Shown here: positions 40,668-42,728 of the stretch, one piece after another
Layout of the letters: every line of letters starts with the position of its first letter
How positions within the stretch are numbered: the stretch's first letter is position 1
DNA from: a bacterium
GTDB lineage: Bacteria > Babelota > Babeliae > Babelales > RVW-14
Reading direction: 5' to 3'
Length of the DNA: 64,000 nt
Assembly: GCA_016699045.1 (NCBI GenBank)
Contig: CP064957.1
Location: 537,784 to 601,783 of the forward strand
Position numbers and translations under genes: made by a program
Notes under the pieces: generated by a model
Database searches by the model: none
The model's input: the letters and a program-made list of their open reading frames with translations, nothing else
What the model was told of the DNA's origin: nothing

Positions 40668-42728
40668 ATGAAAACAGCTTTACCCAAATCTCTTATTTTG
40701 AGCTTTGTTGTCACTCTTTTTGCGCATGATCTTGTTGTTGGTAGCGAGTTACCAACAAACCATTATTATGCCAACGAAAATATTCCAAAAATAAAAGCTG
40801 ATCTTGAAAAAATAAAAGAAGCAGCTACCAGCAATGACATGGAAAAAAAGATAAACACACCAACAGTACACGCTCCCTGCATAATTCTTATCGAAGAACA
40901 AAATCAAGAAAATAAAAATGATGCCGACATCGGAGCCGTCACCACATCACTTGGTATGGCTGTTGAAGACGCTTATTCCGCCATTATCACCAGTGCTTCG
41001 GTTCTTTTAAATATGATTGAACGCATCGATCCCCAAGCATCAAGCCATAACGACCAACGATTTAAGGATTTATCATTTAAACAAGGGCAATGGCGACTTT
41101 TTAGCGTATCAGAGACAGGTTTTTTTCTGCTCATTCCAAAAAAATATGAAAATCTATATAGCTTAGCGGGCTTCGATATAACCAAAACAATAGAATTCAC
41201 TAACACTCTGCCCAACCAATCATTAAACGATTATACCACACTAAAGAAATTACTGGGTAATAAACTAAAAAAACTTGCACTTAACCAAACCACCTTGAAA
41301 AAAATCATTGTCCCTATGACCGAAAATATTGTACGCGACTTCTTGATTGATGGCCACGGCTCAACAGACGGCTCTATTTGTGGAACTGATCCTAAAAACA
41401 TTAAAACATTTTTGCAACACCTAAACTTTTCACAAAAAGGCCAAAGTACCACTGGATTTGTTGGGTTATTTTCATGCTACTCAGGCGGCAAGAATTTAAA
41501 TAAAATTGAATTGAGCGAAAATAACAGTACTAATGTTTTGGATGACTATAATTTTACCCTGATGGTATTTTCAACAAACGATGATGTGATTCAAGAGACT
41601 TTTCCAAAAACTCAAGCATTTATACGTAATTTTTTTAATCAAACAGCACAATTTGCCGATAAAGGCCCCGGCCTTGATGAACTTATGAAAAGCTTTGTAA
41701 AATTCAATCCACATCAAGATTATAGCAAGCATGGCACCAGTAACTTACCTCAAATTTGGCTACCACACGGAAAAGGCTTTCAAACATTCAACCTCGGAGC
41801 CGAGATTGAAATTATTAACAAAGTACAAACACGCATTCACAAAGAAAACAATGAGCCTTTCGTAATCAAAGATAAAAAGGCCGTCTTGCTTTATTCAAAT
41901 AACATCGAGATACCAATAAATATTATCAGCACACAAAGTATCAATAAAAATAATAGAAGCACCAAGCATTTCTGGAATGAATTACCCGTTGGCACCGAGA
42001 CGTTTGACCATCTAGCAACTAAACAAGAAACTCAAACTATTGTGCAAGATAACACTAACTATCCTCTGTGCTCTCAAGCATATGAAAACATAGTAGGGGT
42101 TCGAGGAGTAAATAGAATTTTCTTTCCAATCGTTATTCCCATGATACGCGAAAACAATATCCTTGCTTTTAATAGCATCTCTCTTGAAAGTCCAAAATCC
42201 TCTATTGGCATCTTGGACTTTATTCGCAGCGCTTTTTTCGATACCGCCAATTATAAAAGAAATGCGTACATTCTCATAAAAGAACTTACCGGCATTAATG
42301 ATATTGCACTTACCCTGGAAGGACTCAGAGCAAGAAAAAAAGATCCAAACCAATCTGCATGTGAAATAGCGTTTAGACCAACTGCCGGCAAAAAAATTAC
42401 CCTCAAAGAAGTTTTTATTTTACAAGAACCTGCAGGCAAACCCTCTGGCATTGAATTTGCCGACACTACTCAACAAAGATGGCTCTACTCCTTCGACGTA
42501 GGTTTTATAGAATCTCCATGGAATTTTGAAAAAACTTCAAAAAATCATTGGGAAAAATATGCGCCCAAAGAAATCACCCCAGGCCAAAAATCACTTACAG
42601 ATGTGCTCAATCAAAGACTTACTCAAGAAGCACTAAGTAAATTAGCAACCGCTCTAACTACTCTCAAAGCAAAACTTACCGAATTGGCACAAACACTGGT
42701 CACATTAAGTAATTCAAAAGGGTCATAA
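40668..42728 (+). CDS. large secreted protein with a legumain/caspase-type (clan CD) His-Cys dyad motif
   Basis: 686 aa. Signal-like N-terminus. FLIDGHGSTDG (His230, nt 41355-41357) and FVGLFSCYSGG (Cys270, nt 41475-41477). C-terminal coiled coil. Confidence 0.6.
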   Translation: MKTALPKSLILSFVVTLFAHDLVVGSELPTNHYYANENIPKIKADLEKIKEAATSNDMEKKINTPTVHAPCIILIEEQNQENKNDADIGAVTTSLGMAVEDAYSAIITSASVLLNMIERIDPQASSHNDQRFKDLSFKQGQWRLFSVSETGFFLLIPKKYENLYSLAGFDITKTIEFTNTLPNQSLNDYTTLKKLLGNKLKKLALNQTTLKKIIVPMTENIVRDFLIDGHGSTDGSICGTDPKNIKTFLQHLNFSQKGQSTTGFVGLFSCYSGGKNLNKIELSENNSTNVLDDYNFTLMVFSTNDDVIQETFPKTQAFIRNFFNQTAQFADKGPGLDELMKSFVKFNPHQDYSKHGTSNLPQIWLPHGKGFQTFNLGAEIEIINKVQTRIHKENNEPFVIKDKKAVLLYSNNIEIPINIISTQSINKNNRSTKHFWNELPVGTETFDHLATKQETQTIVQDNTNYPLCSQAYENIVGVRGVNRIFFPIVIPMIRENNILAFNSISLESPKSSIGILDFIRSAFFDTANYKRNAYILIKELTGINDIALTLEGLRARKKDPNQSACEIAFRPTAGKKITLKEVFILQEPAGKPSGIEFADTTQQRWLYSFDVGFIESPWNFEKTSKNHWEKYAPKEITPGQKSLTDVLNQRLTQEALSKLATALTTLKAKLTELAQTLVTLSNSKGS

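Follow-up and report, generated by a model that had tools for sequence, protein, structure and literature searches.

A predicted exported clan CD cysteine peptidase and its sequence family in Dependentiae

We analyzed a 64,000-nucleotide stretch of a Babelales genome (assembly GCA_016699045.1, contig CP064957.1, positions 537,784 to 601,783; hereafter, the window), in which the gene at 40668..42728 on the + strand encodes a protein of a new Dependentiae family, one that is probably exported and active as a clan CD cysteine endopeptidase. The predicted nucleophile is Cys270 and the predicted general base His230, with Arg or Lys the probable preference at the P1 position. The gene is a complete open reading frame (ORF) from ATG to TAA (686 amino acids plus stop), and the NCBI entry 'hypothetical protein IPF37_02570 [bacterium]' has exactly the sequence of its product. 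An earlier note, made from the DNA letters, had described a legumain/caspase-like protein. At the level of clan CD, in both fold and dyad, this identity is supported; as membership of peptidase family C13 (legumain) or C14 (caspases), it is not borne out by curated sequence models. Dependentiae/Babeliales are obligate intracellular parasites of protists, widespread and almost uncultured, and to our knowledge what is known of how they manipulate their hosts consists mainly of lists of ankyrin proteins and 'ORFans'. What is new here is a family that has neither a curated model nor a solved relative and comprises at least 146 clusters at 50% identity, together with its layout, in which a signal peptide precedes a decorated caspase fold, then a conserved domain without a match, and finally a tail that is either basic or a coiled coil. 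The fold, the catalytic principle, and the existence of clan-CD-like effectors in intracellular bacteria are already known.

The catalytic pair and the predicted fold

The codons of the ORF agree with the earlier note on the length of the product, the coordinates of His230 and Cys270, and their 40-residue spacing. His230 (CAC, 41355..41357, + strand) sits in a G-H-G motif right after strand b3, within VRDFLIDGHGSTDGSICG (residues 222-239), and Cys270 (TGC, 41475..41477, + strand) in an S-C-Y-S-G-G-x-N motif right after strand b4, within TGFVGLFSCYSGG (residues 262-274). When 150 family sequences were aligned to the family hidden Markov model (HMM), 136 spanned both columns, and each residue is present in 136/136, the retention among homologs that the earlier note had proposed as a check. 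The flanks are nearly as constant, with G229 in 134/136, G231 in 132/136, and Ser or Thr at 269 in 136/136; after the cysteine, G273 and G274 are each found in 130/137 and N276 in 118/135, giving the family motif x-[ST]-C-[YF]-[AS]-G-G-x-N. Its first position, column 268 (two residues before the cysteine, Cys-2), varies, with Ser in 27, Glu in 16, Val in 13, and Leu in 11 of 136 and Phe in the query protein. An independent MAFFT alignment of 64 members, with a mean column identity of 15%, has G229, H230, and C270 as its sole invariant columns. The protein contains five cysteines and 13 histidines, and apart from this pair none of the other four Cys or 12 His is invariant. Public contigs supplied six additional copies whose ORFs extend over the catalytic region, and all six keep both residues; a seventh ORF represents no more than the C-terminal part of a copy broken by a frameshift. 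Invariance across 136 divergent relatives argues that H230/C270 is a catalytic pair and not a chance motif.

AlphaFold2 models built from the family alignment scored a predicted local distance difference test (pLDDT) of 89.1 and a predicted template modeling score (pTM) of 0.87 at full length, and a pLDDT of 91.1 and pTM of 0.91 for residues 60-380. Residues ~65-375 (40860..41792, + strand) are modeled as a caspase/legumain-like (clan CD) catalytic domain, an assignment drawn from the models, Foldseek, and hhalign; the unrelated fold that the earlier note had allowed for did not emerge. Along the chain, b1 (67-74), a1 (90-101), b2 (105-109), and a2 (110-120) lead into an insert (~121-215) and then b3 (221-228), with G-H230-G at its end; two tiny strands, a3 (242-256), and b4 (261-268) follow, the last leading to S-C270, and the domain is completed by a4 (274-281), b5 (297-300), D305, a5 (314-327 and 334-342), and b6 (362-364), which falls within a conserved PQIWLP motif. 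The modeled order b1-a1-b2-a2-[insert]-b3(H)-a3-b4(C)-a4-b5-a5-b6 is that of the published clan CD description, in which the His loop follows b3, the Cys loop follows b4, and a small beta section likewise lies between b3 and a3 (McLuskey and Mottram, PMC4357240). His, then Gly, ends b3, Cys ends b4, His precedes Cys in the chain, and a hydrophobic strand comes before each. The earlier note had read these two strands from the letters; in the model, they correspond to b3, immediately before G229-H230-G231, and b4, immediately before S269-C270.

In a Foldseek search of the PDB with the protease domain, the best 50 matches are all caspase-1/-3/-7/-8/-11 or MALT1, led by 1i4e_B (caspase-8) at E 7.6e-4, probability 0.99, and a template modeling (TM) score of 0.37 by query length or 0.46 by target length. 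The full-length model also finds caspases ahead (1i4e_B, E 0.038), with weaker matches to MALT1, PIGK (the glycosylphosphatidylinositol (GPI) transamidase, C13), and the cysteine protease domain (CPD) of TcdA (C80; rank 36, E 0.86). By this measure, the nearest solved structures are C14 caspases and MALT1, not legumain. TM scores below 0.5 and a large root-mean-square deviation (rmsd) point to a distant, decorated clan CD relative as the predicted protease domain, with no competitor outside clan CD among the structure matches.

A second line of evidence is independent of the model. A profile of 71 family sequences was compared by hhalign with single targets, 44 shuffles of each target serving as the null. 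The human caspase-3 sequence was verified against the PDB beforehand, and the full human legumain sequence was matched to PDB legumain chains before use; the legumain motifs that the earlier note had quoted proved correct, FIYFTDHGSTG containing His148 and MVFYIEACESGS containing Cys189, with a spacing of 41 residues between the two. Against legumain, hhalign returned E 0.0079 and placed H230 on His148 and C270 on Cys189; the score of 28.0 lies about 6 standard deviations above the shuffles (14.5 +/- 2.1, maximum 18.6). Against caspase-3, it returned E 0.054, with GHG on SHG (His121) and SC on QAC (Cys163), and a score of 20.9 versus 14.6 +/- 2.0 (maximum 20.0) for the shuffles. We read this as a weak but real sequence signal, in which both catalytic residues fall into register at once.

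Architecture, family, and place within clan CD

The N-terminus reads MKTALPK-SLILSFVVTLFA-HDLVVG/S and by direct reading carries a putative Sec-type signal peptide (or N-terminal anchor) in residues 1-25 (40668..40742, + strand): Lys2 and Lys7 precede the hydrophobic LILSFVVTLFA, followed by VVG/S, with no lipobox Cys. The hydrophobic core covers residues 8-19, and AlphaFold models a helix at 7-23. A hydrophobic N-terminal segment is present in 104/144 Met-initiated family sequences, and the protein looks like one secreted by a Sec-type signal peptide.

Within the protease domain, AlphaFold secondary structure delimits a family-specific insert of ~95 residues between a2 and b3 (~121-215; 41028..41312, + strand). 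It includes a conserved beta-hairpin, W142...P157, with the motif 'FLLIPKKY' (W142 in 112/133, P157 in 128/134). Conserved acidic residues lie on two loops of the domain. Glu76 and Glu81 (40893..40910, + strand) were identified in the alignment and placed by AlphaFold in the loop after b1 (L1); position 76 is Asp in 112/128 relatives and Glu in the query, and E81 is kept in 104/127. Asp305 (41580..41582, + strand; Asp in 107 and Glu in 17 of 136) lies in the loop after b5. In caspase-7, Arg87 and Arg233, which bind the P1 Asp, sit on loops L1 and L5 (PMC4357240). By analogy, D/E76, E81, and D305 would serve the S1 pocket, and acidic residues in place of the P1-binding arginines of caspases suggest a preference for a basic (Arg/Lys) P1 residue.

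The protease domain is followed by a conserved, mostly beta domain of ~260 residues (~380-640; 41805..42587, + strand), delimited from AlphaFold and the alignments, in which P487, G514, F523, G542, N544, and D545 are near-invariant. It has no structural match in the PDB by Foldseek and no sequence match when the family profile is compared with the PDB. Residues 640-652, QKSLTDVLNQRL (42585..42623, + strand), are the query version of a C-terminal family motif, QK[ST][IL][ST][DE][IV]LKxKQ, found in at least 28/150 representatives (among them P0002, P0006, P0012, P0013, P0015-P0019, and P0021), mostly 12-65 residues before the C-terminus. A Lys-rich tail comes after it in most cases, but a Leu-heptad helix takes that place in the query, P0004, and P0074. 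The motif may mark a site of processing, act as a secretion signal, or form a tail that binds membranes or lipids. In the query, AlphaFold models a single long helix of ~40 residues (643-683; 42594..42716, + strand), and the 3-4-3-4-3-4 spacing of hydrophobic positions at 656-677 indicates a coiled coil, as the earlier note had also read it.

The size of the family depends on how it is searched for. A word-indexed homolog search with the query returned four relatives only, and word-indexed searches with alignments added just P0005 and P0151. Scanning 1.84 billion cluster representatives with phmmer retrieved 146 proteins at E <= 1e-3, 90 at E <= 1e-10, and 37 at E <= 1e-30, mostly 25-33% identical. 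Organism names are available for two relatives only, P0005 (Candidatus Dependentiae) and P0020 (Candidatus Babeliales), and as far as source names show, the family is confined to Dependentiae/Babeliales. The 1.45-Mb metagenome-assembled source contig, the 40% GC of the window, and its ankyrin genes are in keeping with that phylum. Several relatives are fused to further modules, namely, ankyrin repeats (ANK, three), leucine-rich repeats (LRR, four), RING (one), and DnaJ (one). For instance, P0005 (930 amino acids) carries ankyrin repeats, P0020 (780 amino acids) has a C-terminal ankyrin-like stretch that is not mapped by Pfam, P0071 (1125 amino acids) ends in a RING finger, P0044 and P0060 have LRR-like C-termini, and the DnaJ fusion is among the longer members. 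Tandem pairs of paralogs occur on three unrelated contigs, at 7455-9836 and 9977-12361 of L004, at 2584-4980 and 6143-8593 of L002, and at 2-2548 and 3594-6145 of L003, where a frameshift interrupts one copy. P0010 and P0021 may likewise share a contig, each being listed with a longest contig of 617 kb. Next to the L002 pair lies a gene for a large serine recombinase (Resolvase/Recombinase/Zn_ribbon_recom), hinting at mobility.

Sequence libraries offer no ready name for the family. By Pfam hmmscan, the query and 63 relatives gave no match to C11, C13, C14, C25, C50, C80, or CHAT at E <= 10, and 43 further, longer relatives gave no clan CD match at E <= 1e-4. For the C13 model (PF01650), the only likeness found is the local 47-column hhalign match to legumain, and the C14 model (PF00656) is absent from all 107 family sequences. 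PDB sequences were matched neither by the single sequence nor by the family profile. Searches of the query against NCBIfam gave a noise match only, and those against PADLOC and, by tblastn, a plasmid collection gave no match; in the viral structure library BFVD, the best Foldseek match (E 0.08) is unrelated. A match to PF17018 (MICSWaP; E 0.012, residues 204-272) was treated as chance because the other 63 of 64 family members lack it. A caspase-like protease of a defense system (CHAT or type III-E-like) was rejected given the lack of a PADLOC or CHAT match and of CRISPR or defense neighbors, and the presence of a Sec signal.

At Cys-2, caspases have Gln, legumain has Glu, and metacaspases have Asp. 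In the present family, this column is variable, so neither the E-A-C of the C13 S1 pocket nor the C14 active-site motifs (QACxG, or D-S-C-H-S-G of metacaspases) are found, although SCYSGG of the query presumably resembles the SCHSGG of metacaspases. No curated model reaches the family, the predicted fold and the dyad of clan CD are present, and the sequence hallmarks of C13 and C14 are wanting; on sequence and predicted structure, it is best described as a new sequence family within clan CD, belonging to neither C13 nor C14.

Comparison with known clan CD systems sharpens this placement. Caspases and MALT1 (C14) are the exclusive structure matches of the domain and share its element order, with His after b3 and Cys after b4; the His-Cys spacing is 40 in the query and 42 in caspase-3, and His is followed by Gly in both. 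Unlike caspases, the family has [ST]-C-[YF]-[AS]-G-G-x-N instead of QACxG, gives no Peptidase_C14 match, inserts ~95 residues before b3, and carries acidic residues, not arginines, on L1/L5. Furthermore, the query is bacterial, starts with a Sec-type signal, and continues into the ~260-residue domain that has no structural match. Legumain (C13) resembles the query in its motif (DHGST versus DGHGST), in the hydrophobic strand before each catalytic residue, and in spacing (41 versus 40), and it gives the best profile-to-sequence alignment of the family, while another C13 member, PIGK, is among the structure matches. In legumain, too, a further domain follows the protease domain toward the C-terminus (PMC4357240). 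However, no Peptidase_C13 match was obtained, the alignment covers ~47 columns around the dyad, Glu187 of legumain (Cys-2) is not conserved in the family, and Foldseek ranks no legumain chain above the caspases. The C-terminal domain of the query is mainly beta and gave no match to the helical legumain prodomain.

Among bacterial systems, Rickettsia RARP-2 offers a functional precedent. This effector of an obligate intracellular bacterium has an N-terminal clan-CD-like His/Cys domain and C-terminal ankyrin repeats, and trans-Golgi fragmentation depends on its putative catalytic Cys (PMC7259798, PMC11077975). P0005 and P0020 have the same protease-plus-ANK layout as RARP-2/dRARP-2. The query itself lacks ankyrin repeats, although ankyrin genes flank it, and RARP-2, compared here by description only, is a substrate of the type IV secretion system without a Sec signal, with its Cys at position 109 of a much smaller domain. 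Families C80 (MARTX and clostridial toxins), C25 (gingipains/PorU), and C11 (clostripain) are, like the query, bacterial exported clan CD proteins with His-Gly...Cys dyads. Gingipains and clostripain cleave after basic residues via an acidic S1 residue, and this basic P1 specificity is the one predicted for the query. In contrast, none of the three families gave a Pfam match or appeared among the best 50 domain matches, and their contexts differ (toxin modules, IgSF/CTD domains).

Proposed activity and competing explanations

In the reading that we favor, the protein would be exported by the Sec pathway and lose its signal peptide, after which Cys270 would attack the scissile carbonyl, with His230 as the general acid/base. 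Backbone NH groups of Gly231 and Cys270 may form the oxyanion hole, as in caspases. Arg or Lys would be preferred at P1, as in metacaspases, the paracaspase, gingipains, and clostripain, with Asp or Asn less likely. The C-terminal ~260-residue domain and the coiled-coil tail may contribute substrate recognition, regulation, or localization. Substrates would be host proteins, with the protein acting as an effector, a part of the favored explanation to which we give about even chances. This role is suggested by the ANK/LRR/RING/DnaJ fusions, the tandem expansion of paralogs, and the placement of the gene in an islet whose other members encode two exported ankyrin proteins and one RBR-like protein; it is strengthened by the fusions and the expansion, not by gene position alone. 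In Chromulinavorax destructans, a cultured member of Babeliales, 44% of the coding sequences carry signal peptides, a share that rises to 78% among ankyrin proteins, and the proteins bearing them are regarded as a host-manipulation apparatus (PMC6561590).

Several observations weigh against an exported, active protease with host targets. Curated models (Pfam, NCBIfam, PADLOC) and PDB sequences match neither the query nor 106 relatives, and the fold assignment rests on a predicted model whose Foldseek E-values are modest, with TM scores below 0.5 and a reported rmsd of 8-12 Å, partly owing to the ~95-residue insert. The hhalign probabilities are 1-5%, over an aligned stretch of only ~50 columns (47 for legumain). 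A signal peptide assures the crossing of the inner membrane only. Taxonomic restriction is weakly documented, since source names are available for two relatives only. Finally, no conserved gene neighborhood or operon partner was found among the loci compared, where L004 has housekeeping neighbors and L002 the serine recombinase, and genomic context therefore adds little.

What the enzyme acts on is the main point of divergence among the alternatives. It may be an envelope processing enzyme or transpeptidase working on the bacterium's own exported proteins in the periplasm or at the outer membrane, which we regard as unlikely. Clan CD offers precedents in the GPI8/PIGK transamidase, the peptide asparaginyl ligases, and PorU, the gingipain-like sortase of the type IX secretion system that couples surface proteins to a glycolipid. 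Such a role would suit a protein with a Sec signal and no recognizable dedicated effector-secretion signal, whose gene is surrounded by a cluster of genes for GT4 glycosyltransferases, an epimerase, and an ABC exporter; PIGK is among the structure matches, legumain is the better of the two hhalign comparisons, and clan CD enzymes can be ligases, as is established for C13. Yet one would expect a maturase with a housekeeping role to be conserved as a single copy in a conserved neighborhood, whereas divergent tandem paralogs without shared neighbors are seen, and the RING, ANK, LRR, and DnaJ fusions make sense only against eukaryotic targets. Moreover, the adjoining ANK/ANK/RBR genes, of lower GC content, look inserted into the glycosyltransferase cluster, and the Glu at Cys-2 that determines S1 and ligase properties in legumain is not conserved. 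It is distinctly unlikely, in our estimate, that the domain cuts its own chain only, responding to a host cofactor and freeing the C-terminal domain or the ANK/LRR/RING modules in the host, on the model of the self-cleaving CPD of MARTX and TcdA/TcdB toxins (C80). The protease domain does always precede another conserved domain, and sometimes extra effector-type modules, the short conserved C-terminal motif could be a processing site, and the TcdA CPD appears among the full-length structure matches. That match is weak, however, with caspases dominating both Foldseek searches, and no Peptidase_C80 match was obtained; the protease is fixed at the N-terminus of an architecture that is near-invariant in most members, while a toxin CPD lies between the translocation region and the cargo.

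A non-catalytic caspase-fold scaffold, or a His/Cys pair kept for another purpose such as metal binding, is very improbable. Pseudo-enzymes of clan CD are established, such as the caspase-like domain of Raptor and cFLIP, but their dyad has been lost; in the present family, the only side chains invariant across 136 sequences at ~25-30% identity are those of His and Cys, Gly231 of the presumed oxyanion hole and the small residues around the Cys are conserved with them, and no further conserved Cys or His could complete a metal site.

Two broader readings go beyond the favored explanation. The protein could be the first recognized member of an arsenal of exported caspase-fold enzymes specific to Dependentiae, with the C-terminal domain directing the cutting or re-ligation of host proteins, an extension that we think unlikely to hold in full. 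If it did, different paralogs would have different targets, such as regulators of organelle trafficking or cell death, in taking over the protist cell, paralleling Rickettsia RARP-2 while being evolutionarily separate from it. In a bolder variant, the enzyme would couple exported proteins to the polysaccharide made by the surrounding glycosyltransferase cluster, as a PorU-like sortase outside Bacteroidota. Short of these, a sizeable ORFan family gains a concrete predicted activity, that of a caspase-fold cysteine protease with H230/C270 and an Arg/Lys P1 preference; clan CD gains a new sequence family bearing a new accessory domain, with no new catalytic principle; and the named catalytic residues supply ready mutants and probes for the few cultured Babeliales.

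Genomic setting of the gene

The protease-like gene is the second of a four-gene 'eukaryote-like' islet (ANK, protease-like gene, ANK, IBR/RING) inside the GT4 glycosyltransferase, epimerase, and ABC-exporter cluster, and the neighbors are those the earlier note had listed. Ankyrin-repeat proteins with a signal-peptide-like N-terminus are encoded upstream (39788..40573, + strand) and downstream (42795..43340, - strand), and the IBR/RING (RBR-like) gene (43717..44988, - strand) comes last. The GC content of the islet is 0.36-0.37, versus 0.43-0.47 in the flanking cluster and 40% for the window overall, and by its lower GC the islet looks like an insertion into the glycosyltransferase cluster. 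The IBR/RING protein has 423 amino acids, an IBR match at E 2.7e-7, RING-like Cys/His motifs at the C-terminus, and hydrophobic helices before them; from its sequence, it looks like a bacterial mimic of RBR-type ubiquitin ligases. Downstream of its gene, at 43601-43564, is a strong terminator-like hairpin with a 16-bp stem. A promoter/terminator scan around the protease-like gene found nothing above shuffle expectation, and an Rfam scan of the window found nothing. Elsewhere in the cluster, a 619-residue ORF (32845-34701, + strand) adjoins the ABC exporter and has no Pfam match at E <= 1e-3.

A second genome assembly (GCA_020049755.1, contig JAHZTO010005732.1; locus L001) encodes an identical 686-residue protein and matches the window at ~99.9% identity between 37668 and ~43400. 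A Glyco_trans_1_2-like gene that is split in the window into two ORFs (38756-39007 and 38992-39807, + strand) is a single gene for 348 amino acids in L001, which has an extra T at window position 38998; the split is either a one-base assembly error in the single 1.45-Mb contig of the window or a real frameshift. Past the ankyrin gene at 42795-43340, identity falls to 81-93% over the intergenic region and the IBR/RING gene, and the alignment is lost beyond ~45250. Just past the ankyrin gene there is thus a sharp boundary of strain-level recombination or variation, which leaves the RBR-like gene variable between strains.

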